From: an uncultured Thermoleophilia bacterium
GTDB lineage: Bacteria; Actinomycetota; Thermoleophilia; UBA2241
Reading direction: 5' to 3'
Length of the DNA stretch: 64,000 nucleotides
NCBI GenBank assembly: GCA_963715985.1
Contig: CAVQSP010000014.1
Span: 746,019-810,018 of the forward strand
Made by a program: the position numbers and the translations under genes. Below the pieces are notes generated by a model. It made no database searches. It was not told the origin of the DNA and worked only from the letters and a program-made list of their open reading frames with translations. Below, piece by piece: positions 6,510 to 46,273 of this stretch (positions are counted from its first letter, which is position 1; every line of letters begins with the position of its first letter).

Positions 6510-6676
6510 TCAGTGACCCCCAGAATCCCGCCGACCCGACCGGCCGGCACCGGCCGGAATAGCACACCGCCCTGAGGTCAGAGTGACTCGTCCAGTGTAT
6601 GCAGGATGGCCGCGAACTAGCACACGGCAGCTAGCCAAGACCATCCCACCAAAGGCCGCCCTCCAAGGCGATGCGG

Positions 6677-8857: not shown

Positions 8858-8951
8858 CAAGGCGCGGCACGACCCGCGGGGGCTGCTGCAGCAGGCCGGC
8901 CATGCGGGCACGGCAGCGCTGTCGCGTGGCGCCCGCCCGGAAGGAGCGCCG

Positions 8952-11393: not shown

Positions 11394-11667
11394 CCAAGGG
11401 GTGCTGCGCCCAGGGCTCGGCGCCGAGTGTGGCCAGCACCCCGTCTGCCCCTGCAACTCTCGTGCAGCCACGCGGTTCCAGAGTAGATGAATGTGGCGTA
11501 TACGTCAGCCCGATCGCGCGACTGGCCGGCTCTTTGGTCAGAAGCGCGGCGCACACGCGCAACGGGCGGCGTCTTCTCACGGTGGCCCACAGCAAATGCA
11601 CGCGGCCCGGCCCGGGTCCCTCAGAGCCTGGCCGGGCCGCGTTCTGGACCACCCTTCTAGCCCAAGG

Positions 11668-14600: not shown

Positions 14601-14687
14601 TGCCGGCACCGCGATGCCGACTGCCAGCAGCACAGAGCAGAGGCAAAGCACGATGACGAGGACGACATGATGGAGGGTGTGTCGCAT
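11668..14687 (-). CDS. Secreted C1A (papain-like) cysteine protease with lectin-like domain, IPT/TIG domain and four C-terminal repeats
   Basis: Signal peptide; QNPRGTCWAF (Gln, Cys), NHGVLIVGW (His), KNSWG (Asn); IYQYDPLG...NVCLKAY lectin-like domain; PTVTGFTPTSGPVGT IPT; ends ...GTVNVTGP-stop at 11668. Frameshifts in the 3' half. Confidence 0.88.
11681..12980 (-). repeat. Four near-identical intragenic tandem repeats of ~324 nt (~108 aa)
   Basis: Unit boundaries at 11681, 12006, 12333, 12658 and ~12981; each encodes WTTN..FSIWVVSPGN.WYVG..VYYRA..PWSLYGLAPGTVNVT. Confidence 0.95.
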
Positions 14688-15164: not shown

Positions 15165-18100
15165 TCAGAACACAGTGACCGTACCTGGAGCTAAGCCGTA
15201 GATGCCCCAGGGGTCAGTGCTGATCGCACGGTAGTAGACGTAGATGCGGTAGCCGACGCCGATGGGGACGTTGAGGTTGACACTCTTGTTCGGGTAGCTG
15301 TTGGTGCCATCCGCGGGGACGATCGTGCCCATGTACCAGCCGTTGGACTGGCTCACGACCCACATGCTGAACTCGCCTGGAGCGGAGACCGGGGCGTTCG
15401 TCGTCCAGGAGACTTGCAGTGCGCTACCTTGCGCCTGACTCACGACGCCGGTCGGGCTCGTCACTGAGATGGTGGTGAAGCCCGCCGTCACGTCGACAGT
15501 GCCGGGCGCCATGCCGTAGACGCCCCACGGGTCGGCGCTGCTCGCCCTGTAGTAGACGAAGATCCGGTAGCCTGTACCCGCTGGGACGTTCAGGTTCACG
15601 GTCTTGTTCGGGTAGCTGTTGGTGCCATCCGCGGGGACGATCGTGCCCATGTACCAGCCGTTGGACTGGCTCACGACCCACATGCTGAACTCGCCTGGAG
15701 CGGAGACCGGGACGTTCGTCGTCCACGAGACCGACAGGCCGGAACCTTGCGCGAGAGTCTGAGTGCCGGTCGGGGCCGTCACGGAGATGGTGTTCAAGAC
15801 CGCCGTCACGTCGACCGTGCCGGACGCGATGCCGTAGATGCTCCACGGATCGGCACTGCTGGTCCGGTAGTAGACGAAGATACGGTAGCCGGTGCCGGCG
15901 GGGACGTCGAGGTTGACGCTCTCGTTCGGGTAGTTGTTGGTGCCATTCGCGGGGACGATCTTGCCCACGTACCAGCCGTTGGCAGGGCTCACGACCCAGA
16001 TGCTGAACTGGCCGGACGCTACAGCGCTGTTCGTGGTCCAGGTGACCGGCAAGGCGCTGTTCTGCGGCTGACTGGTAGTGCCGGTGGGAGCGGTGACGGT
16101 GATGGTGGCGAGGTTCGACTGGAACGTCGCGCTGATCGTATGGTTGCCAGTCGTCACGCTCGTGAACGTGTACGTACCTGTCGACACCGCGGTCGGATTG
16201 CTGACTCCGTCCACCAGCACCGTGGCACGGCTGTAGCCGGCGTTCGGCGTGATCGTGTAGGTCACGTTGCTGCCGATAGGCACGGTCGTCACGCCGGGCG
16301 GTGTGACGCTGCCGCCGGTCCCCGCGGTCGCCGTGATGGTGGCCGTACCCCCCGTGAACGTCGCGCTGATCGAGTGTACCGCCTGCACGTTGGTGAACGT
16401 GTAGGTGCCGGACGTCACCGCGGCCGGCTGGTTGACGGTGTCCACGACCACGGTGGCGATGCGGTAGCCGGCGTTCGGCGTGATCGTGAAGGTCTGACTC
16501 CCGCCCCTGCCCACGGCCACTGCGCCGGACGGCGTGATGGTGCCGTTGGCGCCGGCACGTCGCCGTGATCGTGAACTGAGGGCCGGTGATGGCTGTGTTG
16601 GACGTCGACTGCACGGTCATGCTCGGGAACTGCAGCCCGTAGCCGACCGTGTTCTGGGCGATGACGCGGTAGTACCGCGTCGTGGTGGTCGGATTGAAGG
16701 TAGACGGATCGGTGAACGTCCGCGCCTGGTGGATGTTCGGCGAGCTCAGCGGCACCTGGATGGTGGTGACGTTGGTCCACGTGCTGCCGAGGTTGGCCGA
16801 GCGCTGCACCACCCATGCGGTCTCGGTGATGGAGTTGTCGTTCCAGTTCAGCACGGCCCTGCGGTTGGACCCACCCGCGGCCTGCAGCGCGATCAGTGAG
16901 CCCGCTCGGCGCGACCGGCGGCAGCGCCAGCGTCTGCGGCCGCATCATGTCCATCTCTTCATGGCTCAGGATGTGGCAGTGCCAGACGTAGCCCCAGCCG
17001 AAGTTGACCAGCACGTTGGTGATCGGGTTGGTCGGGTTGCCCTGCGGATCGATGTTATTGAACTGCGTGGTGGCACCGGTCGGCATGGCGGGGTTCATGT
17101 TGCGGATCGAGTTGGGCACCTCCCACGGGATCTGGGGCACGATCGGGCGCAGGGCGACGATCGTGTCCTCCAGCGGGCTGATGCGCACCGTCTCCTTCCA
17201 GCCGAGCTCGCCCGGCTCCGTGGGGATGACGATGTTGTCCCAGGTGACCCGGTTCAGGATCTGGACGTCGTAGAGGTGGAAGTGGATGGGGTGCGTGTCG
17301 ACGCCGTTGTGGGTGATGCGCCAGATCTGCGTGCCGTCGTTGGCGTCGGTCATCGGCGTGATCTTGACGTCGCTCACGGGATTGCCGTTGGTGTCGTAGG
17401 TGACGGCGTTCTTGGGCAGCATGGTCCCGTTGATGAGCTCAGTGGTCGGGTTCACGAACGGGTACAGGGTCACGTTCTGCTGACCCGCGTTCGGCGGCTG
17501 CGCCTCCACGCCCAGGTTGGCCTGCATGCGGCCGAACTCGTCGAAGGTGGACGAGTTCATCTCGTCGTGGATGGCCTTGGGCTGCAGCGGCATCGTGGTC
17601 TTGACGGCCGGCTTGCTGAGCGTGTTGAAGCCGAAGGACATGGTGTCGTTGACGCGCACGAAGCCGTCGCAGACCGTGAACCCGGGGTTCGGGGCGTTGG
17701 GGATGGGGCTGCAGTTGCTGCTCGCGGCGAAGCTGGTGCCGTAGGCCGAGTTGTAGGCGGCCTGGCCGACGATGATGGGGTGCTGGCTGGCCTCGAACAC
17801 GCCGCTGCCGTTGGACTTGTGGAGGAAGGCGTTCCTCAGCTTGGTCAGGTTGAAGGCCGCGGCCGGGGTCCCGGCGATCTTCACCTGCATGACGGTGCGG
17901 GTGTTGGGGCCGTAGCCGGGCAGGATCGTAGGGCGCGCCGACCGGGCTCAGGTCGGGGCCGCCGGTGTAGTAGTCGTAGCTCGGCACGCGGGCCGGGAAC
18001 GCGGCCGGCGCGTCGTTGTAGAGGATGAGGGTCTTGCCCGCGAACTGCGAGAAGTCGACGATCACGTCGGCCCGCTCGGCGGGAGCCCAGCAGCAATGAG

Positions 18101-20794
18101 TGCAGGTCCACGTTGCCGACGTCGAAGCGCGTCGGGTCGGTGATCCAGGTGGTCTCCTGCTGGCCGTCCACGACCGTCGGGGCCGGCAGGAAGCCGCCCT
18201 CGCTGCCGATCTGGATCCAGTCAGGGCCGCTGGTCGAGGCGTTGTGCACCGGCGTCGGGAAGACGACCGGGTCGGTCTGGGCCTGCGCCAGCAGGGTCGG
18301 GTCGAGCGCGACCTCGGTGCCGCCGATAGGCTGACCGGCCGCGTTGAGAGCGGTGCTCGCGGTGGTGGGATCGGCCACGTACCACTGGAAGTTGAAGAAG
18401 CGGTCGTTGGCCGCGTTGAGCACGCGGAAGCGGTAGGTCTTCGGCTGCAGCGTGACCGTCGGGTAGGCGATGCCGTTGACGATGGGCGTGTCGTTGAACT
18501 GCTCCATGCCGGCCGAGATGTTGGGCGTGCCGGGGATGGTGGCCGGTTCGCAGAACGGGTCTACCTGGTACGTCCACGTGGAGGGGACGTCGACCTTGCA
18601 GTTGGCGTCGAAGAAGGGGTTCGCGATAGGCCCGTACTTGGTGCCCGCCGCCGGCGGCCAGAACCACGGGCCGTACATCCAGCGTCCGTAGGCGCTCATG
18701 CCGCCGGCATCACCGGGGTTCTGCGCCGGCATGTACACGTGGTGGTACCAGAAGTCGCCGTAGTCGCCCCACTTGGTCTTGTCCCAGGTCGGGTCCTGAC
18801 CGTAGGAGACGGTGGTGGTGCCTTCGACCTGGTCGTAGAGCTGCGAGTCCTGCGGCACGAAGGTGCGGTCCTGGACGACGAGCGGGATGGTGTCCGCCGC
18901 GCCGGGGATCGTGCCGGTGCTGATGAGCTCCTTCTCCTTGTCGTCGGTGATGAGGTAGCCGGCAGCCTCACCGACGTACACGTTGAGCCTGGTGATGCCC
19001 CACGCGTGGTCGTGGTAGAAGAGCAGCCGGGCGCTCTGCTGGTTGGTGTAGTAGAAGGTCTGGACGCCGTCCGTGGGGGAGTTGTACCCGGGCATGTCGG
19101 GCACGTTCTGGACGTCGACGCCCTGCGGCCAGGCGGTGGTCTCGTTGGCCGGCGTGATCCACTGGTGCGGCGTGCCGTCGCTGATCCACGGCGTGGTGCC
19201 GCCGTGCAGATGCAGGGTGGCGCGGTTCTGCCTGAAGCACCGCGGGTCCTGCGGAGTGTCCGTGCACACGGGGTTGCGCACTTCGTCCATCACGGTGCCG
19301 TTGTTGACCGGCGCCGGCATGGCGACGGGGCCGTCGCCGGTACCCATCAGGGTGCTGTCGGTCGGGAGGAAGAGGTCGCCGGCCACGCCGGTCGGGAGCA
19401 GGTTACGGAAGACGATGCGCACCGGCTTGTCCTTGGTGGCCGCGATGATCGGGCCCAGCCACTGCGGCGGGGTGACGCCGTACGCCTGGACCCCACCGAT
19501 CAGCACGTTGTGGAAGGTGCCGTCCTGCCACTCGTTGACCAGCGGGAAGAGGGCGCCGTGAGCCGGGTGAGCGGCCTGCCACGCCGGTGTCGCGATCTGC
19601 ACGTAGCCGCGCACGAGCGCCCCTCCGGGCATGCTGGAGGAGAAGAGCGAGCGGTACTGCACGACGCCGATCACGTACTCGTCGGCCATGATGGGCTTGT
19701 TGCCGTTGCTGGGGTCTGGGTAGGCCTTCTGCTCCGGCACTGCGAGCGGGATGGCCTTGGAGGCGATGTTGGTGGCCCAGTCGGCGGGGCAGCTGCCGGG
19801 CGTCATGGGGTCGCAGAGCCCGGGCAGGGGATCCACGAACTTCTTGATGCCTCCGCCGCTGAGGTAGCCCGTGCCGCCGGCGGTGACGTTGATGGCCGTG
19901 ACGCCGCCGGTGCCGATGGCCGCCGTGGCGGTGGCGCCGGAGCCGCTACCGACGGAGTCGAAGATGTTCACCGTCGGGGCCGACGTGTAGCCGGCGCCGA
20001 AGGTGTCGAGCACGATGCTCGTGACGCTCAGCGTGCAGGTGGCCGAGGCGCCGGACCCGCCGTTGGCGATGGGGTCCATGAGCGTGCCGTCGCGGATGAC
20101 CATGTGGGGAGCAGTGGCGTAGCCGGAGCCGGGGTTGATGATGTCGAGCGACGCGATGGAGCCCCCGGTGCCGAGGTTGGCCTTCACGACGGCCTGGACC
20201 CCGTTGGGGTCGTCCGGCATGTCGATGTCGACCGTCGGCAGCGTGTAGCCGCTGCCGGCGTTGGCGAGGGTGACCGCGTTGACGCTGCCGTACGCGCTGG
20301 CAGTCGCCGCGGTGGTGGCGCCGCCGCCCGTGAGAGAGACCATGGGGCTCTTGTACCCGGAGCCGTTGGCGCCCACGGTGATGCCGGTGACGGCGCCGCT
20401 GGAGGTGACCACGGCCGTGGCGGCGGCGCCGGTGCCCGGCGCGCCGGTGATGATGACCGAGGTCGTGCCGGCAGTGTAGCCGGCGCCGGGAGTGATGACC
20501 GAGATGCCGGTGACGGCTCCGTTGCCGTCGACCGTCGCCACAGCCGTGGCGCCCGTGCCGCCACCCGTGCTCGTCACTTCTACCGAAGCGTTGGGCAGCG
20601 TCAGCGGGCTCAGGGCCCAGTTGGGCCACGGACCGAAGTAGTGGGGGACCTTGGTGTTGTCCGGTCGGGGAGCTCGGGGCGGCCTTGCCCTGACTCATCT
20701 GGATCATGAACAAGGCTGTGAGCAAGGCCACGACCACAAACACGATGATGCTGGCCTTGCCCAGCGTCATGCGCCTGATCACTCTGGTACTCAT
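15165..20794 (-). CDS. Giant secreted multicopper oxidase (~1870 aa; Geobacter OmpB-like core) with FN3, two divergent InlB-B-like repeats and three C-terminal repeats (frameshifted)
   Basis: ATG 20794 with RBS and signal peptide; all four Cu motifs present: LHLHGG, FYHDHA, THPIHFH, WHCHILSHEEMDM. ORF pieces 17881-20577, 17439-18065, 16415-17890, 15424-16854 and 15165-16520 join. Confidence 0.88.
15171..16110 (-). repeat. Three 318-nt (106-aa) C-terminal repeats homologous to the protease repeats
   Basis: Boundaries at 15171, 15489 and 15807; WTTN..FS(I/M)WVVS..NGWY.G..VYYR...PW..YG.A.GTV.V. Confidence 0.92.
19860..20600 (-). repeat. About six degenerate Gly/Ala/Thr-rich peptide repeats within the MCO
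   Basis: GAVTGISVITPGAGY, GAVTGITVGANGSGY, GSVNAVTLANAGSGY, GSIASLDIINPGSGY, SVTSIVLDTFGAGY, GGVTAINVTAGGTGY. Confidence 0.8.
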
Positions 20795-20976
20795 GGAACC
20801 CCCTTCGTGCGACGTGACTCGTCGCTCCCTGACGCCCACTCTGCCATACGACTCTCGGGGTCCCGAACCCCTTGGCGGGACCTCTGTTTCTCTGTCTGCC
20901 GGGCAAGACGGTGCACCGGCGGCCGGTTTGAGTGCATCATCGCCCGCTTCAACACGGGCGGAATAGCGCACTTGTA

Positions 20977-21010
20977 CCAGTCTTCACCTAGATGAAAGGC
21001 ATAGGTTTAG
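20977..21010. promoter_or_regulatory. Candidate operator, copy 1 (upstream of the MCO)
   Basis: CCAGTCTTCACCTAGATGAAAGGCATAGGTTTAG matches 26431-26464 at 25/34 without gaps. Confidence 0.55.
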
Positions 21011-21089
21011 TGGGCTGCGGGCTGCAAAAGGCCCTGCCACCCCGCGGTCGGCGGGACCGCCCGCCCCTCCGGACGACGGTGCGACCGCG

Positions 21090-21797
21090 TCAGTCAGAGG
21101 TGCTCGGGGCCCGGTGCAACGTGTCCTCACGCACCGTGCCGTCGGCCATCTCCAGGTGGCGCGTGCCGAAGGTGACGAGGTGCCGGGCGTGCGTGACCAT
21201 GAGGACGGTCAGGGCCTGCTCGGCGTGGATGCGGCGGAAGATCTCCATGATCTCCGCCTCGGTCTCCTCGTCCAGGTCGCTGCTGGGCTCGTCGGCCAGC
21301 AGGAGCTCCGGCCGGTTGATGAGGGCGCGGGCGATGACGACGCGCTGCTGCTGCCCGGCCGAGAGCTCGCGCGGCAGCGCCTTCGCGCGGTGCCCGAGGC
21401 CGACCATGTCCAGCAGCTCGCGGGCCCGCGCCCGGGCATCGGCGTGCTCCTCGCGGCTGAACTCCAGCGGCAGCGTGACGTTCTGCTCCAGCGAGAGCCC
21501 GGGGATGAGGCTCGGGAACTGGAAGACGAAGCCCATGGTGCGGTTGCGCAGGCTGCTGCGCTCGGCGTCGCTGATGTGCCAGATGTCGACGCCGTCGACG
21601 GTCACCGTCCCGCTGGTCGGCGTCGCGAGGCCGGCGACGACGTTGAGCAGCGTGGTCTTGCCGCAGCCCGATCGCCCCGTGATGACGAGGAACTCGCTGG
21701 TCTCGATGTCGAGGTCCACGTCGCGTAGCGCGGCGAAGGTCGCGGCCTTGTCGCCGCCGTACGCCTTGCCCACCCCCCGCAGTGACACAGCCGACAT
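21090..21797 (-). CDS. ABC transporter ATP-binding protein (LolD/MacB type)
   Basis: Start MSAVSLRGVGKAY; Walker A GRSGCGKTT; GFVFQF; LSAGQQQRV; LLLADEP; MVTH. Confidence 0.92.
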   Translation of the reverse strand: MSAVSLRGVGKAYGGDKAATFAALRDVDLDIETSEFLVITGRSGCGKTTLLNVVAGLATPTSGTVTVDGVDIWHISDAERSSLRNRTMGFVFQFPSLIPGLSLEQNVTLPLEFSREEHADARARARELLDMVGLGHRAKALPRELSAGQQQRVVIARALINRPELLLADEPSSDLDEETEAEIMEIFRRIHAEQALTVLMVTHARHLVTFGTRHLEMADGTVREDTLHRAPSTSD

Positions 21798-21802
21798 GGC
21801 CC

Positions 21803-23092
21803 TCACTCCCTCATCGAGACGGCCGGCTCCTGGCGCGACGCGCGCAGCGCCGGCACGAACGCCGCCACCGCGGCCACGGCCAGGGCGATCAGCAGGCCGG
21901 CGACGACCAGCCCGAGCAGGCTGACGAGCGACGGCAACAGGATCGGGAAGCCGAGCGCCGAGACGAGCAGGTTGCGGAACAGGTACATGGCGACGGCGGC
22001 CAGGATGGCGCCGGCGAGGCCGCCGGCCAGCGCCAGCAGGGCGGCCTCGGTCATGTACGCGGAGAGCACGAAGCGCTGGGTGGCGCCGAGCGCCCGCAGC
22101 ACGCCGATCTGCCGGCCCCGGTCGTGGACCGACATCCAGAACACGACCGCCATGAGGGCCAGCGAGAGCACGACGGTGAGGGCGACGATCACGACCAGCG
22201 TGCGCAGCACGCCCGAGATCTGGGAGCCGTACGAGCCGAACATCTCGGCGGCCGGCACCGCCTGCGCCTCGGGCACGGCCGCCGTGATGGCCTTGGCGAC
22301 CTCGCTGCGGTCGGCGCCGGGATCGACCTTGACCAGCACCGACGACACGGTGTCCCGGAGCACGGGGAGCGCCATCTTGGCCTTGGTCTGCGAGGCCGCC
22401 GCCATGGCGTCGGCGGTCGGGAACGTCATGAAGAGGGTCTGGTCGAGGTTGGTGCCCGTCGGCTCGAGGTTGCCGACGAGGTCGAAGTCGTAGCCGTACA
22501 GCTTGATCTTGTCCTGACCGGCGGGCACGAAGACGTCCGAGCCGCCGATCGCCTGGCCCTCCTCGAGGTCGTGGCCGAGCTTGTCCCGGAGCCACGGCTC
22601 GATGGTGAAGTCGGTGACCGGGTCGAAGGCGAACATGAACATCAGCGACACCGAACAGCACGAGGAGTTGGCCATCGAGGTGAGGTAGAGCTGCGGAGAG
22701 GCGGTGGCCACGCCGGGCACCGCCGCGACGCTGTCCACCACACCGCGCGGCATGTAGGTGTTGGTCGCGTTGCCGAGCAGCAGCGCTCCCTCGACGCCGG
22801 TCACGGAGCCGCGCGGCACGACCACCACGTCCGCCCCCAGCCGCTCCCGGGCCAGCCGCAGGCTCTCTTCGCCGCCGCGCGAGATGATCACCGTGCACAG
22901 GACCATGCCGGCGACGAGCAGGGCACACCCGCCGACGAGCCAGCTGCGCAGGGGGTTGCTGGTGATGCCCGTGAGGGCGAGCCTGATGAGCCCGGGAGGC
23001 CTCAGATCGACCGCCTCCGCGAGCGGGCGAAGTGCCCGGTGATGACTGCCGCAGCCATGGCTGACGCCCCCTTGCGCACGTGCGGGCTCCAC
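21803..23092 (-). CDS. ABC transporter permease (MacB/FtsX family); true start probably ATG 23058 with an early indel
   Basis: TM1, large external domain (RLGADVVVVP; LYLTSMANSSCCS), then three TMs with IGVLRALGAT. Confidence 0.9.
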   Translation of the reverse strand: MEPARAQGGVSHGCGSHHRALRPLAEAVDLRPPGLIRLALTGITSNPLRSWLVGGCALLVAGMVLCTVIISRGGEESLRLARERLGADVVVVPRGSVTGVEGALLLGNATNTYMPRGVVDSVAAVPGVATASPQLYLTSMANSSCCSVSLMFMFAFDPVTDFTIEPWLRDKLGHDLEEGQAIGGSDVFVPAGQDKIKLYGYDFDLVGNLEPTGTNLDQTLFMTFPTADAMAAASQTKAKMALPVLRDTVSSVLVKVDPGADRSEVAKAITAAVPEAQAVPAAEMFGSYGSQISGVLRTLVVIVALTVVLSLALMAVVFWMSVHDRGRQIGVLRALGATQRFVLSAYMTEAALLALAGGLAGAILAAVAMYLFRNLLVSALGFPILLPSLVSLLGLVVAGLLIALAVAAVAAFVPALRASRQEPAVSMRE

Positions 23093-23118
23093 CGACGCCG
23101 GAGCCCGCTGAGGTCCTG

Positions 23119-23147
23119 ATTGTATGGTACCGTTTTGAGCCCGTCCA
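23119..23147 (-). promoter_or_regulatory. Housekeeping-sigma promoter of the ABC operon
   Basis: TGGACG-N17-TACAAT. Confidence 0.55.
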
Positions 23148-26100
23148 GAATCGGAAACGGGCGGCGCAACGGCAGGGAGGGCGGTCTGGACGTCCGGGCA
23201 CTCAGGGCAGCAACGGCACTGGCCGTGCTTCTCGTCACGGCCTCTCCGGCCGTTGTCCTGAGCGCCTGCGGCACTCAGGAGGAGGCGCCGCGGGCGGGCG
23301 TCGCCCCGCGCGGCGCGGCCAGCACCGACGCCGGCGTCACCAACGGGGCGATCTCCTACACCACCCGCGACCTGCGCGCCATGATGTTCGAACGACCCAC
23401 GCAGCCGGCCAGGCTGAACGCGGCGTCACGGGCCGCCGAGAAGACGATCGGCCGGCCCTCTCCCCCGCCGCCGCAGCTCGACCCTCTCGCCGAGCCCGAC
23501 TACTTCGGCGGCGCCGCCAACTGGGCCACCAGCCCGCTGCTGCGCAAGTTCGTCGACGCGCTGCCCGGCGTGGGCGCGGCGGCGGCCAACGACTTGGGCC
23601 AGTACATCCCGCTGGCGGTGCCCGACACGATCACGTATCCGGGCTCGGACTACTACGAGCTCGCCGTGCGCCAGTTCGCGGAGCAGCTGCACAGCGACCT
23701 GCCGCCGACGCGCCTGCGCGGCTACGTGCAGCTCAACCGGGGCACGGACGCGCGCGGGCGCAACACGGTGGAGCCCGCCGCCATCCACTACCTCGGGCCG
23801 CTGATCCGCGCGCGCCGCGGACGCCCGGTGCGCATCAAGTTCGTCAACCAGCTGCCGGGCGGCAGCGCCGGCAAGCTCTTCCTGCCGGTGGACACCACCG
23901 TCACCGGCGCCGGCGCCGGCCCCAGGGGCGGCGACCAGACGTACCCGCAGAACAGGGCGTCGCTGCACCTGCAGGGCGGGCTCACGCCGTGGATCAGCGG
24001 GGGCTCGCCGTACCAGTGGATCACGCCGCCCGGCGAGCGCTCGCCCTACGCCGACGGTCCCGGCCTCACCAACGTCCCCGACATGTGGTTCGACGCTCAG
24101 GGGCGGCCCGTCGCCGAGGGCACCCCGGGGGCCACCAACGACCCGGGCCCCGGCGCCACGACCCTGTACTTCCCCAACGACCAGAGCGCCCGCTTCCTCT
24201 ACCTGCACGACGACACCTTCGGCCTCACGCGCCTCAGCGTCTACGCCGGCGAGGCGGCCCCGTACATCATCGGCGATCCCGTGGAGGACGGCCTGGTCGC
24301 GGCGGGCACGGTGCCGGCCGCGGAACTGCCGCTCATGATCGAGGACAAGACCTTCGTTCCCGACCGCGACCAGCTCACGAGGCAGGACCCCACGTGGGAC
24401 GTCGCGCACTGGGGAGGCCGCGGCGCCCTGTGGTACCCGCACGTCTACATGCCGAACCAGAACGCCAAGGACAGAGACGACCTCAACGCGATGGGACGCT
24501 GGGACTACCTCCCCTGGTACTGGCCGGGCTACGAAGGCACCGTGAACGGGCCGGTGCCGAACCCCCTCTTCGGGGCCATCGCCTACCAGCCCAAGAACAA
24601 TCCCGGCACCCCGAACCCGTCCGCGGTCCCCAGCGCCTTCTTCGACACGATGCTCGTCAACGGCACGGCCTACCCCTACGTGACGGTCGCACCCAAGGCG
24701 TACCGGCTGCGCATCCTCAATGCCTGCGCCGACCGCCCTCTCAACCTCCAGCTCTACTACGCGCGGTCGAACCAGATCGCCAAGACGGGTCCTGGAGGCG
24801 AGCCCGAGCTGCAGACCGACTCGGGCGATGTGCCGATGGTGCCGGCGGTGGGAGCGATGGGCGGCGGCCAGCCGGCGAACTGGCCGGTGGACGAGCGCGA
24901 CGGCGGCGTGCCGGACCCGTACGCCGCCGGTCCCACGATGATCCAGATCGGCAGCGACGGCGGCCTCCTTCCGCAGGCCGTGCCGCTGCCGAACACGCCC
25001 GTCGGCTACGAGCGGGAGACGGCCCCGGTGCAGGGCGCGATGGGCGGCGGGATGGGCCAAGGCACCGCCGCCGAACGCCTGATCGTGGGCATCTCCGTGA
25101 GGACGCTGTATCTCGCCCCGGGCGAGCGCGCCGACGTGATCGTCGACTTCTCCGCGGTCCCGAGCGGCTCCAAGCTCATCCTCTACAACGACGCCCCCGC
25201 GCCGGCGCCCGTCGGTGACAGCCGCGTCGACTACTACACCGCCGATCCCGACCTGACCTCGATCGGCGGCGCGGCGACCACGCTGGCCGGCTACGGACCC
25301 AACACGCGCACCATCCTGCAGTTCCAGGTCGAGGGCGCCGCCTCCGCCCCCTTCGACCTCGAGCGCCTGCAGAGCGCGCTGCCGGCCGCCTTCGCGGCCT
25401 CCCAGGACCCGATCCTCGTGCCGACGAGCGCCTACGACGCCGTCTACGACACCCAGTCCACGGTCGGCGTCCCCGCCGAGAAGAAGGGCACGCTGAGGTT
25501 CACGCCGCTGGGCCGCGAGTACGCGCTGACGCTGCCCGTGCAGGGCAAGATGGTGAGCGAGCTGTTCGATCCCACGTACGGACGCAAGACGGCCACCCTG
25601 GGCGTGGACGCACCGCTCGCGGCCAGCGGCAAGAGGACCTCGGTGCCCTACTCGGCCATCGACCCCGCCACGGAGTACGTCGGGGTCGACGTCAAGGCCT
25701 CGGCGCCGCGCCTCGGCGACGGCACGCAGGTGTGGCGCATCACCCACGACGGCACCGAGTCGCACAGCATCGCCTTCGGCGGCTTCGACGTCCAGGTGCT
25801 GGCGCGCGCCAGGCGCGACGGCGAGGCGCGCGCTCCCGACCCCGGCGAGCTGGGCTGGAAGGACACCCTGCGCGTCGACCCGCTCGAGTACGTCCTTGTC
25901 GCTCTCCGGCCCGTGCTGCCGGACCTGCCCTTCAAGCTCCCCGCCAGCGAGCGGCCGCTGGACGTGACGCGGCCGCTCGACAGCGAGGACGGCTTCACCC
26001 AGCTCGATCCGCTCACCGCGGACCCCGCCACGGTGACCAACGTGCCCGCGGACCTCAGCTGGGAGACGTACTGGAGCGTGCACCTGCCGGGCGGCGAGGA

Positions 26101-26423
26101 GAGCCACATGCTGCGGCCGCTGGTCGTGCAGGGCAGCCCCGTGGCCCCGCAGGGAGTGACTGCCAGCGCCGGGGACGGCCCGGCGGTGACGCTCACGTGG
26201 AAGGGGCCCATCTTCCCGCCGCCGCTGGTCCGCTACCTGGTGCAGCGCGCCGCCGACGAGGAGTTCCGGCGCGAGCTCGAGTCCTTCGAGGCCGCGGCCG
26301 ACGGCCTCCTCGCTCACCGACGACACGGTGCTGACCGGCCAGACGTACTTCTACCGGGTGCGGGCCGAGTCGGCGGGCGGCTCCTCGCCGTGGTCGGCGC
26401 CGGCCGAGGTCAGGCAGCCCTGA
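23120..26423 (+). CDS. Lipoprotein multicopper-oxidase paralog with degenerate copper sites and a C-terminal FN3 domain
   Basis: Lipobox VLSAC; collinear with the neighbouring MCO (RKFVD.LPG, LRGYVQ, YRLRILNA, IQIGSDGG, LILYNDAPA, QVWRITH). Cu motifs read HLQG, LHDD, HSIAFG, WSVHLPGGEESHM. One indel near 26310; FN3 frame stops at 26423. Start uncertain. Confidence 0.85.
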
Positions 26424-26430
26424 CGCGTGA

Positions 26431-26464
26431 CCTGTCCTTCCCTGGACAAAAGGCATAGATTTGG
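26431..26464. promoter_or_regulatory. Candidate operator, copy 2 (upstream of the two-component operon)
   Basis: CCTGTCCTTCCCTGGACAAAAGGCATAGATTTGG shares the core AAAGGCATAG(A/G)TTT with copy 1. Confidence 0.55.
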
Positions 26465-26532
26465 CCGGTCGCGGCCGGCCGGAGCCCATGCGGCCGAGAC
26501 TGGTCCGCCGGTAAGCCCGTGAAAGGACCGGT

Positions 26533-28386
26533 GTGAACGCTCCAGTCATCGTCATGGCGATCGTAGCGGGGATCTGCCTGCAGGCGGCGCTCATGCACGG
26601 GCTCGCGGGCGCCGCGCGGCGCCCGCGCGACACCGTGCGTATCGCGTTCGCCTTTCAGGCGCTCGCCGTCTCCGCCGGCGCACTCTCGCTCATCGCCATG
26701 TACTCGGCGAGCACCCCCCAGGCACACATGGCCGCCATGAAGTGGGGCCTCTTCCCCGCCGGGGTCGCGTGGACGATAGCCAGCGTGTGGCTGGTCGCGT
26801 TCTACACCGGCGTCCGCCCGATGCGCTGGCTCCTCGCGCTCACCGCGGCGCTCTGCGCTTTCGTCGTCGTGGACCTCGCGCTCCCGACCGGGCTGTTGCA
26901 CGACAGTGCCGGTGCGATCACGAGGACCAGCATGGCGGGAACGCACGTCTCCATCATGGTCATGCCCCACCCGCACCCCTTGAACCCCCTTGCCGACGGG
27001 GTGACCCTCCTGGCGTTCGCGTTCATGTTCTACGCGGCGTGGCGCGTGCACCGTCGCGGCGAACACCGCAGAGCGTGGTTCGTGGCCGCCGTCGTGTTCG
27101 TCCTCCTGGTGGTGAACATCGCGGACGCGCTCCAGGCCTACGGCGCGGCGTGGGACGTGTATCTCACGCAGCTCGCGTTCGCGGCGCTCGTCATCGGCGT
27201 GAGCGTCGCGCTCCGCCGGCAGTCTTCACGCACGGAGGCGGAGCTCTCCGGCTACCGCAGCCATCTCGAGGCCCTCGTGGATGAGCGGATGCGCGACCTC
27301 GAAGACGCGCACGAACGACTGGCGCAGGAGTCGCGGGAGCGGCTTGCCACCGCGGCGGCGCTGCGACGGCGTGTGGCCGAACTGGACGCTCTGCAGCACA
27401 TCTCACGGATGCTCGCCGACCGCAGTGACCTGGACACGGTGCTGCGCGAGATCGCGCCCCGGATCGCGGCCTTTCTGGAAGCCGACCAGGTGCGGGTCGT
27501 CCTGACCGGGGGCGGGGCCGAGGGCGCCGGCCGCGCGGATGGTCACCAGCCCGGGCCGCACCTGGAGCCGGCGGACGGCCTGCTCGTCGTGCCGCTCGTG
27601 GCGCGCGGCCACACGGTCGGCGCGCTCCACATCACGAGGGACGACGAGGCGCCGTTCTCCGACCAGGAGCGCCGTCTGGCCCAGACCGTGGCCGACGACG
27701 TGGCGGCCGCCGTGGAGAACGAACTGCTGCACGCGCAGCAGACGCGAGAGGCCACGGAGGAGGAGCGCCAGCGGCTGGCCCGCGACCTTCACGACGCCGT
27801 CTCGCAGACGGTCTACTCCGCGGTGCTCATCGCCGAGGCCCTGCCCGCCGTGTGGGCGCGGGACCAGGCTGAGGGGATGGAGAATCTCGCACGCCTGCAA
27901 CGCCTCGTGAGGGCCGCGCTGGCCGAGATGCGCGCCCTCCTCTACGAGCTGAGGCCGGCCGCTCTCGAGGCCGCTCCGCTCGGGAGCCTTCTCGACCGCC
28001 TGGGCGACATGTTCGCCGGCCAGCTGCAGGGCACTGTCACCGTACGTTCGAGCGGAGATCTCGACCTGCCGCCCGACGCCAAGCTCGTGCTCTACCGCGT
28101 GACCCAGGAGGCGCTGAGCAATATCCTCAAGCACGCTCACGCCAGCGAAGCGGACGTGGAAGTGATCGCGGAAGACGGCGTGGTGTCGCTGTACATCACG
28201 GACGACGGGACGGGCTTCGACCTCCGCACGGTCAGCCCGTCGGGGATGGGCCTGCGGATGATGCGCGAGCGTCTGGAGGGAGCGGGCGGCTCGTTCGCCA
28301 TCGAGAGCGCGCCAGGCCGGGGGACGACCATCAGGGCCGTCATCCCCGGCAGAATCGACGTCCAGGCGTCGGCGAAGGCGGTGTGA
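26533..28386 (+). CDS. Membrane sensor histidine kinase (multi-TM, GAF, HisKA_3, HATPase)
   Basis: About 7 TMs; ERQRLARDLHDAVSQ; QEALSNILKHAHA; DDGTGF; GMGLRMMRER. Confidence 0.92.
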   Translation: MNAPVIVMAIVAGICLQAALMHGLAGAARRPRDTVRIAFAFQALAVSAGALSLIAMYSASTPQAHMAAMKWGLFPAGVAWTIASVWLVAFYTGVRPMRWLLALTAALCAFVVVDLALPTGLLHDSAGAITRTSMAGTHVSIMVMPHPHPLNPLADGVTLLAFAFMFYAAWRVHRRGEHRRAWFVAAVVFVLLVVNIADALQAYGAAWDVYLTQLAFAALVIGVSVALRRQSSRTEAELSGYRSHLEALVDERMRDLEDAHERLAQESRERLATAAALRRRVAELDALQHISRMLADRSDLDTVLREIAPRIAAFLEADQVRVVLTGGGAEGAGRADGHQPGPHLEPADGLLVVPLVARGHTVGALHITRDDEAPFSDQERRLAQTVADDVAAAVENELLHAQQTREATEEERQRLARDLHDAVSQTVYSAVLIAEALPAVWARDQAEGMENLARLQRLVRAALAEMRALLYELRPAALEAAPLGSLLDRLGDMFAGQLQGTVTVRSSGDLDLPPDAKLVLYRVTQEALSNILKHAHASEADVEVIAEDGVVSLYITDDGTGFDLRTVSPSGMGLRMMRERLEGAGGSFAIESAPGRGTTIRAVIPGRIDVQASAKAV

Positions 28387-28387
28387 C

Positions 28388-29020
28388 ATGAGCGATCCCC
28401 AGCGGATCAGAGTGATGATCGTGGACGACCACGTCATGGTCCGCGAGGGCCTCAAGGTACTGCTGTCCACGGCGCCCGACCTCGAGGTCGTCGGCGAGGC
28501 GGCCACGGGCGAGGAGGCCGTGCGGCTGGTGCCGCTGGTCGAGCCCGACGTGGTGCTCATGGACATCGTCATGCCGGTGATGAACGGCGCCGAGGCGACG
28601 GCCCGCATCAAGAAGGACCATCCCCTGGTCCAGGTGGTCGCCCTGACCAACTACGCCGACGGCGACCTCGTCGAGCAGACCCTCTCGGCGGGGGCGATCA
28701 GCTACCTGCTCAAGGACTCGCGACCGGACGCGCTGGCGCAGGCGATCCGTGACGCGCGCCGCGGCCGCGGCACCATCGACAGCAGCGCCATGCACTCGGT
28801 GATGACCCGCCAGCAGGACGAGCTCGGCAAGGACCTCACCCACCGCGAGCGGGAGGTGCTCGTCCTGCTCGCCGCCGGCATGAGCAACAAGGAGATCGCC
28901 GAGGAGCTGACCCTGAGCGTCGGGACCGTGCGCCTTCACGTGAGCAACATCCTCACCAAGCTCGAGGCACCGAACCGCACGAGTGCGGCCATCCTCGCCG
29001 TCAAGCACGGTCTCGCCTGA
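28388..29020 (+). CDS. NarL/LuxR-family response regulator
   Basis: IVDDH, VVLMDIVMP, YLLKD; LTHREREVL...SNKEIA...HVSNILTKL. Confidence 0.95.
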   Translation: MSDPQRIRVMIVDDHVMVREGLKVLLSTAPDLEVVGEAATGEEAVRLVPLVEPDVVLMDIVMPVMNGAEATARIKKDHPLVQVVALTNYADGDLVEQTLSAGAISYLLKDSRPDALAQAIRDARRGRGTIDSSAMHSVMTRQQDELGKDLTHREREVLVLLAAGMSNKEIAEELTLSVGTVRLHVSNILTKLEAPNRTSAAILAVKHGLA

Positions 29021-29155
29021 CGCTCTGGGGCGGCCGCCCTGCCGTACCAGCCGCGGAGCCTCCCGCGGTTTGCGGTAGACTGCGGCTGAGTCCCTAGGCG
29101 CACGAAACTTGTCGACGGGCGTCTGGCCGGTACCCGGACGGTTGAGGAGCGTCAC

Positions 29156-29804
29156 GTGCCCGCGCTGAGCGATCACCCCCGCGTCACCAGGAGCGCCCCG
29201 TGGGTGGGCGGTACCCTGATGCTGGTCGTCGCCGCCCTGCTCCTCTACGCGTTCACCGGCGCGGCCGCCAGCGAGCCCTCGAAGTCGGCCCAGCCCAACG
29301 CCGACGACATCTCGTATGGGCCGGCGGACGCGCAGCTCTCGGTCATCGAGTACTCCGACTTCGAGTGCCCGTTCTGCGCGCAGTACGCCGACGTGGCTGT
29401 CGACCCTGCGCGAGCGGTACGGGGACAGGGTCCAGTTCGTCTATCGCTTCTTCCCGCTGGCCAACCACAAGTACGCCACCATCGCCGCCAAGGTCGCCTA
29501 CGCGGCGTCCCTGCAGGGCAAGTTCTGGGAGATGCACGACCTCCTGTTCAAGAACCAGACGGAGTGGTCGGAGTCGGACGACCCCCGGCCCTTCTTCGAC
29601 TCCTACGCCCAGGAGATCGGTCTGGACCTCGACAGGTTCCACAAGGACGCCGACGCGCAGTCCACGACGGACTTCATCGCGGCGCAGGCCGCGGAGGGCA
29701 AGGCGGCAGGTGTCAAACACACGCCCTGGTTCGTGGTCGGCGACGAGGTCGTGCTGCCACGGAGCCTCGAGGAGTTCGACAAGCTCATCCGGGAGGCGCT
29801 GTGA
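29156..29804 (+). CDS. Membrane-anchored DsbA-family thiol-disulfide oxidoreductase (one frameshift near 29390)
   Basis: N-terminal TM; EYSDFECPFC; YRFFPL; QGKFWEMHDLLF; GVKHTPWF. Confidence 0.9.
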
Positions 29805-30277
29805 CGAGCGGCGAGACCGCGCGCCCGCGCCGCTGGGTCCCGTGGCTGCTCACGGCCCTGGCCTTCGCCGGGTTCGTGATCTCGCTGTACCTCACGTTCG
29901 TGCACTACCGCGGCTACGTCTCGCCGTGCTACGTGGTGCACGGCTGTGAGACGGTGCAGACCAGCAAGTACTCCGTGGTCCTGGGCGTGCCGCTGGCGCT
30001 CCTCGGCACGATCTTCTTCGGTCTCATGTTCTACCTGGGTATCGCTCTGTTGACGGTCTCGCGATCCGCGGTAGTGACGGTGTTCCGGCTGCTGGCCTTC
30101 GCGGGCGCCATCGCGATCATCCCGCTCTTCCTGCTCCAGGCCATCGTCCTCAAGGCGTTCTGCACGTACTGCGTCGCCACCGAGGCGATCATGCTTGCGC
30201 TGTGGCTCGTGGCCTTCCTGCTGCCCGCCGCGGCTCCCGGGAGGGAGCCCGCGGAGGCAGAAGCACAAGCGGAGTGA
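29801..30277 (+). CDS. Vitamin K epoxide reductase (VKOR) family protein
   Basis: GTGA overlap with dsbA; PCYVVHGCETVQTSKYS...GVP; FCTYC. Confidence 0.9.
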   Translation: MTSGETARPRRWVPWLLTALAFAGFVISLYLTFVHYRGYVSPCYVVHGCETVQTSKYSVVLGVPLALLGTIFFGLMFYLGIALLTVSRSAVVTVFRLLAFAGAIAIIPLFLLQAIVLKAFCTYCVATEAIMLALWLVAFLLPAAAPGREPAEAEAQAE

Positions 30278-30644: not shown

Positions 30645-31784
30645 TCAGGAGGCGCCGCGGATGCGGGCGAGGAGCGCGTCGACCAGCTGCCCCTCGGGCA
30701 GCGCCTCGACGCGCTCGCCGTGGTCGAAGAGCACGCCCTCGCCGGCCCCGGCGGCGATGCCGTAGTCGGCGTGGCGAGCCTCCTCGGGGCCGTTCACGCG
30801 GCAGCCCATGACGGCCACCGTGATGACCTCGCCGGCCAGCGCCGGGTCGGCGCCCAGCCGGCGCTCCACCTCTTCGGCCAGGCCGACGATGTCCACCTCG
30901 GTGCGGCCGCAGGTGGGACAGGAGATCACGTCGGGGCCGCGCCGGCGCAGGTCGAGCGCGGCCAGGATCTTCCAGGCGACGCGGACCTCTTCCACCGGGT
31001 CGCCGGTGAGCGAGACGCGCACGGTGTCGCCGATGCCGTCGGCGAGCAGCGCGCCGATGCCCACGGCGCTCTTGATGGTGCCGCCCCACACCGTGCCCGC
31101 CTCGGTCACGCCGACGTGCAGAGGAGCGTCGGTGCGCTGCGCCAGCAGGCGGTATGCGGCGATGGTGACCGGCACGCTCGAGCTCTTGACGCTGAGCTTG
31201 TACGCGCCGAATCCCCACTCGTCGAACTGCGCCGCCCAGCGTAGCGCGGCCTCGACCAGCGCCTCGGCCGGCTCGTGCGCCGCGCGGCCGCGCAGGTCCT
31301 TGGGCAGCGAGCCGGCGTTGACGCCGATGCGGATGGCCACGGGGACCTCTGTGGGGCCGGCGGCCGCAGGCTGCCCGGCCTCTCCCCCGCCGGCCGGCAC
31401 GCGCGCTTCGGCGGCGGCGCGCACGATCTCGCGCACGTGCTTCTCCGCCATCGTGCCCGGATTGATGCGGATGCCGGCGGCGCCGGCCTCGACGGCCGCG
31501 AGCGCCAGACGCCAGTCGTAGTGGATGTCGGCGATGATCGGCACCTGCGGTGCGCCCGGCGCAAGCGCCGGAGCCTCGCGCACGATGCGCGCGAACGCCG
31601 GCGCCTCCTCCGCCGTCGGCAGGCTCACGCGCACGATCTCGCAGCCGGCGCTCACGAGCGCCCGCACCTGCGTCAGCGTCGCCTCCGCGTCGCCGGTCCT
31701 GGTGCACGTCATGGACTGCACGAGCACCGGCGCTCCGCCGCCCACGGGCACCGCCCCGACCATGATGCGGCGGGCGGCGCTCAC
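30645..31784 (-). CDS. ispG: 4-hydroxy-3-methylbut-2-en-1-yl diphosphate synthase
   Basis: VGGGAPVLVQSM, IADIHYD, RINPG, IRIGVNAGSL, SCPTCGR, VMGCRVNGPEEA; GTG at 31784. Confidence 0.95.
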   Translation of the reverse strand: MSAARRIMVGAVPVGGGAPVLVQSMTCTRTGDAEATLTQVRALVSAGCEIVRVSLPTAEEAPAFARIVREAPALAPGAPQVPIIADIHYDWRLALAAVEAGAAGIRINPGTMAEKHVREIVRAAAEARVPAGGGEAGQPAAAGPTEVPVAIRIGVNAGSLPKDLRGRAAHEPAEALVEAALRWAAQFDEWGFGAYKLSVKSSSVPVTIAAYRLLAQRTDAPLHVGVTEAGTVWGGTIKSAVGIGALLADGIGDTVRVSLTGDPVEEVRVAWKILAALDLRRRGPDVISCPTCGRTEVDIVGLAEEVERRLGADPALAGEVITVAVMGCRVNGPEEARHADYGIAAGAGEGVLFDHGERVEALPEGQLVDALLARIRGAS

Positions 31785-32740
31785 GCGTGCTCCCGGTACC
31801 ACGTCCAGGTCTCGGCCATGCCGTCGGCAAAGCTGTGCTCGGCCTCCCAGCCGAGCACCCACCTGGCCCGGCCGGCGTCGGCGCGCGAGTGGCGGATGTC
31901 GCCGGCGCGCGCCGGCTCGTGGCGGCGTCCCACGGGAGCGCCGGACAGCTCCTCCAGACGCCCCAGGACGTCCAGGACGCTCGTCGCCTGCCCGGACCCC
32001 ACGTTGACCACCGCGACGCCGCTGAGGGGCCTCAGAAGGGCTCTGAGCACGGCCTGCACCACGTCGCCCACGTAGACGAAGTCGCGCGTCTGCTCGCCGT
32101 CGCCGTAGATGGTCACCGGTTCGCCGGCGGCCGCGGCGGCCATGAAGCGGCTGATCACGCCCGAATACTCCGAGCCGGGGTCCTGGCGTGGCCCGAACAC
32201 GTTGAAGAGGCGCAGGCACGCGGCGACGATCTGGCCGGCGTCCGCTGCCGCGGCGCACGTCTGTTCCGACGCCAGCTTGGCCTCCGCGTACGGGCTCATG
32301 GGCCTCGGGACGGAGGTCTCGGAGACGGGGAGCCCGGCCGCGTCACCGTACACCGCGCAGCTGGAGGCCAGCACCACGCGCGGCACGTCGGCGTCCACCG
32401 CCCAGCGCACCACGTTGACGGTGCCGCCGTGCGTGACGCTGCCGGTGCCGACGGGGTCGGCCACCGACTGGGTCACGGAGGCAACGGCCGCGAGGTGGCA
32501 GACCGCCGCGCAGCCGTCGACCGCTTCGCGCACCTTGTCCTCGTCGCGCACGTCGCCGGCGATGAGCTGGAAGCGGCCGCCGTGCGCGGCGGCCAGGGCC
32601 TCGGCGCCGCGGATGTTCTCGGGCTTGCCGGTGCTGAAGTCGTCGAGCACGCGCACGTCGTTGCCCGCGCTGAGCAGAGCCTCCACGAGGTGAGAACCGA
32701 TGAAGCCGGCGCCGCCGGTGACGAGGATCAGGTCGTCCAC
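31781..32740 (-). CDS. NAD-dependent epimerase/dehydratase (GalE-like)
   Basis: VTGGAGFIGSHL; SPYAEAK (YxxxK); FNVFGPRQDP..YSGVI. Confidence 0.9.
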   Translation of the reverse strand: MDDLILVTGGAGFIGSHLVEALLSAGNDVRVLDDFSTGKPENIRGAEALAAAHGGRFQLIAGDVRDEDKVREAVDGCAAVCHLAAVASVTQSVADPVGTGSVTHGGTVNVVRWAVDADVPRVVLASSCAVYGDAAGLPVSETSVPRPMSPYAEAKLASEQTCAAAADAGQIVAACLRLFNVFGPRQDPGSEYSGVISRFMAAAAAGEPVTIYGDGEQTRDFVYVGDVVQAVLRALLRPLSGVAVVNVGSGQATSVLDVLGRLEELSGAPVGRRHEPARAGDIRHSRADAGRARWVLGWEAEHSFADGMAETWTWYREHA

Positions 32741-32746
32741 CCGCTC

Positions 32747-32752
32747 ATCTTA
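32747..32752 (-). promoter_or_regulatory. -10 element of a probable leaderless transcript (epimerase-ispG)
   Basis: TAAGAT lies 6 nt upstream of the GTG start, with no Shine-Dalgarno. Confidence 0.5.
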
Positions 32753-32801
32753 CTGCCCGCAACGCCGCGACCGGCCGGAAGACCGCCCGCGCCTGCCTCG
32801 C

Positions 32802-34073: not shown

Positions 34074-34358
34074 TCGCTCTCTCTGTCCTGGCGGCGGTCC
34101 GGCCGCGCCTCCCGGCGCCGGGCGCGGTGCTCCGCCGCTCACCGTTCTGGGTGTACCCCGCGCATGAGGATACCCGCTCGATATTGCGGCCCGGTTAACT
34201 CCCGGTGACGCCGCGCGAGCCATTGCTGCCTACGAGACGGCGCTCGGGGGCGGCGGGTGCGGCGGCGCCGTGCTCTCGGCGGGCGGTCGTCGGCGCGGCA
34301 GTCGTGGCGGACTGCGGCGCGGCGGTCGGCGGCGGTCTCCGCGGCGTCCGGCGGCGGT

Positions 34359-46260: not shown

Positions 46261-46273
46261 CGTACTGACCGCC

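Follow-up and report, generated by a model that had tools for sequence, protein, structure and literature searches.

A giant secreted multicopper oxidase encoded with a remodelled pseudo-oxidase lipoprotein, an ABC pair and a disulfide pair in Thermoleophilia: a candidate extracellular folding and copper-loading kit

In this study, we have analysed a gene cluster of 15 kb in a 64,000-nucleotide stretch of DNA (the window) from an uncultured Thermoleophilia bacterium. The cluster codes for a giant secreted multicopper oxidase (MCO) of an OmpB/MofA-like family, a lipoprotein related to MCOs that lacks part of their copper ligands (the pseudo-MCO), an ATP-binding cassette (ABC) pair, a two-component system and a DsbA/VKOR pair (Table 1). 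Our results show that two modules are fused here, one made of the MCO, DsbA/VKOR and the regulator, which occurs in three genera, and one made of the pseudo-MCO and the ABC pair, which occurs in a single genus. We propose, giving the idea an even chance, that the block is an extracellular folding and copper-loading kit for the secreted oxidase. The family of the enzyme and the fold of every accessory are already known; the gene combination, the ligand-remodelled lipoprotein family and the link of a DUF4418-ABC module to OmpB-like MCOs were not found described in a full-text search that most subscription journals lie outside.

Table 1. Features of the cluster, with positions in the window
Feature	Position	Strand	Remarks
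Giant secreted three-domain MCO, OmpB/MofA-like family	15165..20794	-	1,874 amino acids, five insertions discounted
Conserved element of ~26 bp, imperfect inverted repeat with A-rich tail	20979..21004	+	185 bp upstream of the giant MCO, antisense to it
ABC ATPase, LolD/MacB type	21090..21797	-	below every NCBIfam cut-off shown
MacB/FtsX-type permease	21803..23092	-	start codon uncertain; Cys-Cys codons 22655-22660, extracytoplasmic domain
Lipoprotein pseudo-MCO	23186..26423	+	probable CTG start, lipobox Cys at 23267, frameshift near 26301, C-terminal FN3
Second copy of the ~26-bp element	26433..26458	+	75 bp upstream of the kinase
Membrane sensor kinase: several transmembrane segments, GAF, HisKA_3, HATPase_c	26533..28386	+	Pfam
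NarL/LuxR-type response regulator: receiver and GerE	28388..29020	+	Pfam
Membrane-anchored DsbA-like thioredoxin, CPFC	29156..29804	+	frameshift near 29396
VKOR	29801..30277	+	Pfam

The original prediction had placed in this cluster a secreted MCO of about 1870 amino acids with complete copper sites. The size and the sites hold, but the window does not carry the gene as an unbroken reading frame: single inserted bases at five points (16557, 16895, 17930, 18086 and 20661) interrupt it, and each is missing from near-identical short-read contigs. These contigs, from four public runs, were aligned at 85% and 94% likeness, and three of the five calls rest on one or two contigs at a depth of 2-7. 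The corrected frame runs from the ATG at 20794 to the TGA at 15165, and four relatives have unbroken frames of 1,708-1,981 amino acids. All four copper motifs, read in the window sequence, are intact (HLHG, YHDH, HPIHFH and HCHILSHEEMDM). Motif positions are assigned to the type 1, type 2 and type 3 (T1, T2 and T3) coppers by the structural descriptions in PMC9138216 and PMC4303304 and by what is generally known of MCOs. The catalytic core has all 10 His, the T1 Cys and the axial Met, and the protein is predicted to be a four-copper oxidase with a complete ligand set. A signal peptide, about 270 residues of Gly/Thr repeats, the core, an FN3/Ig-like stalk and three C-terminal repeats of about 105 residues follow one another along the chain; an fn3 domain is found on most of 120 homologues and is weak in the orthologue L026. 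Besides the T1 Cys there are eight cysteines, arranged as four local pairs in the three orthologues shown. Export by Sec is indicated, because no conserved twin-arginine motif was found in the signal peptides of four orthologues.

Two parts of this protein deserve separate mention. The Gly/Thr/Ala-rich repeats between the signal peptide and the core (window 20580-19870, minus strand) have no Pfam match and are conserved in the giant clade. The ~105-residue repeat, also without a Pfam match, forms the C-terminus of a secreted papain-family (C1) peptidase with a lectin-like domain encoded downstream (window 11657-14687, minus strand, several frameshifts), and it recurs at C14:737-740 kb, C11:670.6 kb and C15:105-108 kb of the source genome; it may be a lineage-specific surface-anchoring domain.

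Relatives of the catalytic core are numerous (at least 5,880 at E<=1e-50 among 8,000 scored candidates), with identities of about 70% in Actinomycetes, Chloroflexota and Myxococcales, and the core family is present in 25 of 400 sampled Actinomycetota genomes. Neither NCBIfam nor Pfam has an OmpB/MofA model, and a protein atlas matched the core only to generic MCO clusters. The likeness to OmpB suggested earlier holds both by family and by the neighbourhood of the Geobacteraceae homologues. An intact orthologue of the giant MCO is 41% identical over 1,329 columns to the Geobacter MCO of locus L158, and it forms one branch (support 100/100) with the Geobacteraceae MCOs and an archaeal member in a tree of 25 rows hand-picked from 240 proteins and from the loci, with which a 73-row FastTree agrees. 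In the Geobacteraceae loci L152 and L158, FKBP, SCO1/SenC and a gene for about 570 amino acids, MofC-like and with a periplasmic-binding domain scored in L158, precede the MCO; this is the OmpB/MofA gene layout described in the accessible part of PMC5566968, which calls the functions of these enzymes unverified. By these proxies, and not by GSU1394 itself, alignment and tree place the giant MCO in the family of the Geobacteraceae MCOs with the OmpB/MofA layout. Like OmpB (GSU1394, Geobacter sulfurreducens) and MofA (Leptothrix discophora), as the same part of PMC5566968 presents them, it is a large secreted three-domain MCO with an FN3-type tail and complete copper sites. The neighbours differ: MofB, MofC and SCO1 there (PMC5566968, same part), a Cys-Cys ABC pair, a pseudo-MCO lipoprotein, DsbA/VKOR and a NarL-type regulator here. 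Homologues of SCO1, FKBP/MofB and MofC were not found in the source genome by tblastn, nor in the cluster; that neighbourhood defines the system and not the protein family.

Among solved structures, CotA laccase, bilirubin oxidase and phenoxazinone synthase PhsA gave the best matches by sequence (E 1e-31) and by fold. The differences are an identity of about 20%, a core of twice the length with long insertions, and scores that stay well short of the PhsA and CueO thresholds (47-58 bits with the CueO model, which requires 525). In 79 loci of the family outside Thermoleophilia, the helpers near the MCO were FKBP (8 loci), SCO1 (6), a MofC-like gene (5), DUF4418 with the ABC pair (3), NosL (2) and an FtrD-like gene (1); SCO1 and the DUF4418 module were never in the same locus.

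The second MCO of the cluster is of another kind. Its lipobox reads LSAC in the window, and the pattern is present in 34 of 43 relatives, several of the others being truncated at the start; it is predicted to be a membrane-anchored lipoprotein. The window protein has no Pfam match and finds CotA by sequence (E 8e-32). The structural model of an orthologue, P0044 (pTM 0.82, mean pLDDT 75), also has CotA as its best fold match, and a CotA-like fold is predicted to be kept. The family comprises about 50 sequence clusters at 65-77% identity. We surveyed the ligands in 45 pseudo-MCO rows covering all sites and in 59 active relatives: the T1 Cys, the last T1 His and three trinuclear His are present in 59 of 59 active relatives and in 0 of 45 pseudo-MCOs. 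By the laccase geometry table in an excerpt of PMC4303304, which assigns the trinuclear His to each T3 copper, the lost His together coordinate one T3 copper, and the second T3 copper has as its ligands the three that are mostly kept. This retained triple is complete in 33 of the 45 and broken in 12, the window copy included, and most relatives keep 5-6 of the 10 His. Two His, the T1 ligand of motif 3 and a newly gained one immediately preceding the axial position, do not vary (45/45), Asp replaces the neighbouring ligand in 44 of 45, and both Glu of motif 4 are largely kept. The earlier label of copper-less thus holds for this lipoprotein at T1 and in one half of the trinuclear centre and is too strong for the rest, since some His persist; the ligand pattern suggests that it likely keeps a metal site. 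Rough pairwise ratios of non-synonymous to synonymous substitution (dN/dS, two comparisons each) were 0.33-0.35 for the pseudo-MCO, compared with 0.35-0.44 in the active core and 0.20-0.23 in the permease.

Although the pseudo-MCO was at first taken for a paralogue of its neighbour, the two are 38% identical and sit in separate clades. The pseudo-MCO family nests among active MCOs of about 1,150 amino acids, and two 100/100 branches separate it from the giant clade, a placement to be read with the atypical composition of the pseudo-MCOs in mind, which can mislead trees. Because it comes from a different MCO clade, an origin as a tandem duplicate of the giant MCO was rejected. SufI/FtsP, the plant SKU5/SKS proteins and insect MCORP share with it an MCO fold without a T1 site, and SKU5 is likewise tethered to the membrane outside the cell. 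They differ in three respects: the pseudo-MCO arose separately within the OmpB-like family; a T3 triple survives in it along with a newly acquired His, while 2 of 12 ligands are left in SufI and SKU5 has none for T1 and T3; and it is encoded beside an active relative and an ABC pair. The SufI/FtsP model NF008135 gave 46 and 39 bits against a cut-off of 581.

MCOs without the T1 Cys are also found in cultured, tractable strains of Micromonospora and Plantactinospora, where they stand alone (P0081, P0082, P0087, P0091, P0094 and P0095; L128, L165, L170 and L193) and are an apparent second origin of a pseudo-MCO. Six Micromonospora proteins have a different ligand pattern and form a separate branch, and a common origin was rejected on this branching, seen with FastTree only; P0112 and P0116, from the same genus, keep all ligands.

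Are these genes linked beyond the window? All 88 other genomes of the family were searched, with a threshold of at least 64% for pseudo-MCO orthologues; these genomes are kin and many are incomplete, so the counts are given without statistics. Within the genus, 17 of 53 genomes have an orthologue of the pseudo-MCO; none of the 35 genomes outside it does. The permease accompanies it in 15 of the 17 carriers and is found in 0 of the 36 non-carriers of the genus; in the two carriers without it the contig ends in or just before the gene. Permease loci were fetched from 14 of the 15 genomes: 13 show the pseudo-MCO in divergent orientation, 12 have a DUF4418 gene between the two, and 11 include the giant MCO, the other three loci being cut by contig ends. 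Of the close permeases on metagenome contigs, 15 have 900 bp or more of upstream sequence, and in 14 of these the pseudo-MCO lies there; the contigs of 11 more are too short. A single stretch holds all six functions in G002, G003, G019, G064, G068 and G076 and in L068, L071 and L107, and the linkage is kept through at least four gene orders, the window included. The giant MCO itself is in 16 family genomes, with one copy broken, and G001, G082, G095 and G100 have it with the Dsb pair and the kinase and without pseudo-MCO or ABC genes. Since the MCO-Dsb-regulator module occurs alone in other genomes, it appears to be the older one, joined in one genus by the pseudo-MCO-DUF4418-ABC module. The original prediction of a single regulated module was therefore right about the linkage, and the unit it saw proves to be two separable ones.

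Pfam confirms an MCO domain in the cluster and the assignments made earlier for the MacB/FtsX permease, the ABC ATPase, the HisKA_3 kinase, the receiver-GerE regulator, the DsbA-type thioredoxin and VKOR. The permease combines MacB_PCD (26.8 bits against a cut-off of 27) and FtsX with a separate ATPase, as in the type VII ABC systems MacB, LolCDE/LolF and FtsEX. It differs from these in its Cys-Cys motif and DUF4418 partner, in the scores of the named models, all below cut-off (LolD 210 against 308, LolC/E 47 against 362, MacB 21 against 966), and in that no MacA/TolC or LolA partner gene was found in the cluster. The Cys-Cys pair of the outer domain is invariant in 30 of 30 aligned sequences at 29%-88% identity. 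More distant relatives of the permease adjoin CopC/CopD or YtkA in 5 of 6 sister-genus loci. Of 36 metagenome loci, which are mostly shorter than 3.5 kb, 15 have a cupredoxin, PCuAC or an MCO of a different kind next to the permease; in three archaeal genomes (2.1-2.2 Mb, one or two DUF4418 genes each) the module lies beside MCOs of the same family. The pair had been called an exporter: it is present, but it is of the DUF4418-associated Cys-Cys type and nothing ties it to export of the enzyme.

DUF4418 gave nine hits over cut-off in 400 sampled Actinomycetota genomes, and a protein atlas also returned DUF4418 clusters. The consulted part of PMC7701253 has one table row on the domain, and literature on its function was not found in the full-text search, most subscription journals being outside its reach. 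The single DUF4418 gene of the source genome is on contig C11 and could act in trans for the window cluster. There (C11:271700-282700) it adjoins a different two-permease ABC pair, a thioredoxin-like gene and another MCO domain. The operon of L090, L094, L096 and L118 offers a compact test case for the DUF4418-ABC module: an MCO of about 530 amino acids, a cupredoxin-domain protein, a lipoprotein and sometimes PCuAC are followed by DUF4418 and a Cys-Cys ABC pair. In another group of Actinomycetota (L208, L211, L214, L215, L217 and L220) the MCO adjoins a MacB-type permease without Cys-Cys, together with an ATPase bearing an unannotated C-terminal extension of about 190 amino acids, small lipoproteins and often a PBP_like_2 binding protein.

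A working analogy for the ABC pair is NosDFY-NosL, an ATP-driven membrane machine that matures an external copper enzyme, as we propose for the pair described here. NosY belongs to another permease class, however, and there is no NosD or NosL in the window cluster. Copper-resistance genes (P-type ATPase, CopC/CopD, RND) are not among the cluster genes, the CopCD of the source genome being on contig C13. A copper-resistance operon (CopA/CueO, PcoABCD or CusCBA) was rejected on this ground and by the CueO score, and we found no described operon of this kind that matches the cluster, a match the original prediction had named as refuting.

DsbA and VKOR carry out oxidative folding in Actinomycetota, where, as here, a membrane-anchored CxxC thioredoxin directly precedes a VKOR with four cysteines. 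The difference is that the pair is patchy here and follows the giant MCO instead of being universal: of the 16 family genomes that encode the giant MCO, 15 have a DsbA orthologue, against 5 of the remaining 72 (20 of 88 overall), and the orthologue is adjacent to the giant MCO in 10 of the 16. The four conserved cysteine pairs make the giant MCO a fitting client, in line with the help in maturation first attributed to the Dsb pair. In L021 (1894-5417), L234, L238 and L240, DsbA-VKOR lies next to genes for a cbb3-type oxidase subunit I and a multi-cytochrome subunit; such genes were not found in the genome of the window at comparable identity.

The motif reported to link the MCO and regulator promoters is real. 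The best 34-base match of the two intergenic regions (20987 against 26441) has 25 identical bases, a score reached by 0 of 200 shuffles, and 16- and 20-base windows reach the observed score in 8 and 9 of 200 shuffles. Allowing up to one mismatch, a 14-base core has no occurrence in the genome beyond these two. The element of about 26 bp is antisense upstream of the giant MCO in 8 of the 12 relatives' loci tested and is present at 21 places across the fetched loci, overlapping loci counted; these counts are partly circular because the pattern was built from those loci. Where kinase and giant MCO are divergent they share one copy, and a lone receiver gene after the regulator is preceded by the element in three genomes. 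A repeat finder did not have the motif among its top families. A sigma-70 scan gave 1 site against 0.6 expected, and a standard promoter was therefore rejected. The element is likely a binding site of the cluster's response regulator; the kinase-side copy may be functional or may be a relic of the divergent MCO/kinase region of the relatives.

What could be the role of these genes in the cell? Since the giant MCO would leave the cell unfolded by Sec, its folding and metal loading would take place outside. There, DsbA/VKOR would form its four predicted disulfides, the firmest step of the proposal; the Cys-Cys ABC pair would deliver copper outside the membrane, a step of moderate strength; and the disarmed lipoprotein MCO would work with the transporter as a tethered metal-holding or scaffold partner, for which the case is weak to moderate. 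A contact between the two MCOs would be pure conjecture. The host lineage, which we take to be monoderm, has no outer membrane and differs in this from the hosts of the OmpB/MofA systems; the kit would stand in for the SCO1/MofB/MofC helpers found beside the same MCO family in diderms. The two-component pair would switch the block on through the conserved element. Once mature, the enzyme would oxidise an extracellular substrate at the cell surface and pass the electrons on to O2, with Mn(II) or Fe(II) as the first guess, by kinship with OmpB/MofA only, and phenolic or humic compounds as the second. About seven multiheme cytochrome c genes (7-15 CxxCH each) and a membrane cytochrome b-like gene lie among menaquinone-pathway-like genes at C11:511849-522093, with further multiheme frames on C9, C10, C14 and C21. 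Together with the cbb3 genes of the relatives they fit a low-oxygen surface redox life and show no tie to the giant MCO.

Several observations weigh against this kit. Five family genomes (the four named above and G013) carry the giant MCO without pseudo-MCO or ABC genes, and 65 of the 79 loci outside Thermoleophilia have none of the tested helpers, so neither the pseudo-MCO nor the ABC pair is needed by the enzyme in general. All carriers of the full block belong to one genus, and their counts are therefore not independent; no cultured host of the block was found. In five genomes with the MCO the Dsb pair lies unlinked or on a separate contig, and in four genomes the pair adjoins cbb3 oxidase genes. 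The pseudo-MCO of the window keeps 4 of 10 His, with a Gln at one position of the retained triple, and the DUF4418 gene is missing at the locus in the window and in 2 of 14 relatives. No copper protein was found in any of the nine Actinomycetota DUF4418 loci drawn regardless of copper (Pfam on selected neighbours, tblastn with eight copper-protein queries), so the DUF4418 module is not copper-specific. As to the substrate, the EXXE iron-binding motif cited for OmpB occurs 0, 1, 1 and 0 times in four orthologues, two of which thus have none, and 3 times in the Geobacter protein.

The alternative that survives best, although we think it unlikely, is a co-regulated envelope island in which the MCO-Dsb-regulator and pseudo-MCO-ABC modules share a regulon and a location and do not act on each other, the pseudo-MCO serving, with no or almost no metal bound, as a scaffold or adhesin in the manner of SufI/FtsP or plant SKU5. 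The MCO-Dsb-regulator unit does exist alone in other genera, gene order is freely shuffled and the pseudo-MCO comes from another clade. T1-dead members of the family also arose separately in Micromonospora without such neighbours. According to an excerpt of PMC2661564, SufI does not bind copper, and a scaffold role is assumed for it. Against the island, the pseudo-MCO/ABC unit was never clearly seen without the giant MCO in the 14 fetched loci, and the ligand loss is asymmetric, with one T3 triple mostly kept and a new invariant His.

The kit has a bolder form, which we regard as rather doubtful: the pseudo-MCO would be an MCO turned metallochaperone, holding copper at its remodelled site, loaded by the DUF4418/Cys-Cys type VII ABC pair and passing the metal to the giant oxidase. 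It is improbable, in our judgement, that the ABC pair is instead a machine of the LolCDE/LolF kind, with structural or redox cysteines, which would extract or place the lipoprotein or assist the passage of large surface proteins across the envelope. The best solved-structure matches of the permease are LolF, MacB and LolE, the best NCBIfam models are LolD and LolC/E, all below cut-off, and the tightest partner of the pair is a lipoprotein. Moreover, four of the nine drawn DUF4418 loci adjoin large secreted proteins, the others adjoining Fe-S, rhodanese, FtrD-like or PqqD genes, and a MacB pair without Cys-Cys is near the MCO in 7 of 17 other Actinomycetota loci. Yet the Lol matches are weak (E about 1e-14) and confined to the membrane part, there is no outer membrane to supply, and the close relatives of the permease sit with copper chaperones.

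Very improbable is a different enzyme, in which the retained three His and the conserved Asp of the pseudo-MCO would form a mononuclear site loaded by the ABC pair and fed with electrons by a partner. The persistence of the triple, the Asp, both motif-4 Glu and the fold agrees with this, but no internal electron donor is left, and a triple broken in more than a quarter of the family, in the window copy too, is too loose for a catalytic site. Finally, a decaying locus or assembly artefact, with frameshifted pseudogenes next to a degenerate duplicate, is hardly credible and is refuted for the family: the seven frameshifts in 15 kb, five of them in the 5.6 kb of the giant MCO, exceed in that gene the background of 26 breaks in 89 kb of comparable genes outside the cluster, but every break of the giant MCO is missing from the short-read contigs, its orthologues include unbroken ones, the dN/dS values indicate purifying selection on the pseudo-MCO and its family has at least 44 further full-length members.

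The background figure shows that the assembly is error-prone, on average less so than in the giant MCO gene. At the frameshift of the lipoprotein gene one contig piece spans the region with a single gap, and that of DsbA was placed from orthologues alone. The source genome measures 4.35 Mb (88.8% complete), the window lies on its contig C14, and Thermoleophilia is also the source label of close homologues of window proteins (P0045, P0142 and L124). Around the cluster lie housekeeping genes, IspG-, epimerase-, RseP- and Dxr-like at 30645-36160 and, by eye, frr-, pyrH- and tsf-like at 57384-62606, on the minus strand; in G068, G076 and L071, too, the cluster is bordered by IspG and the epimerase. 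Glycosylation and sugar-nucleotide genes occupy window 2000-10600 and 41800-55700.

OmpB/MofA-type enzymes are tied to iron and manganese cycling, and a solved structure of one was not among the matches found. To our knowledge, how copper enters large Sec-secreted oxidases outside a monoderm cell is not settled; the block gathers candidate helpers in one place, which makes the question testable by co-expression. If the helpers are mere bystanders, the giant MCO would be one more member of a family with thousands of sequences. If the metallochaperone reading is true, it would be a new copper-delivery route replacing SCO1-type chaperones in monoderm bacteria and archaea, and would give DUF4418 its first function. 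The pseudo-MCO family, with one T3 ligand set lost and one new His, is a clean natural experiment in pseudoenzyme evolution.

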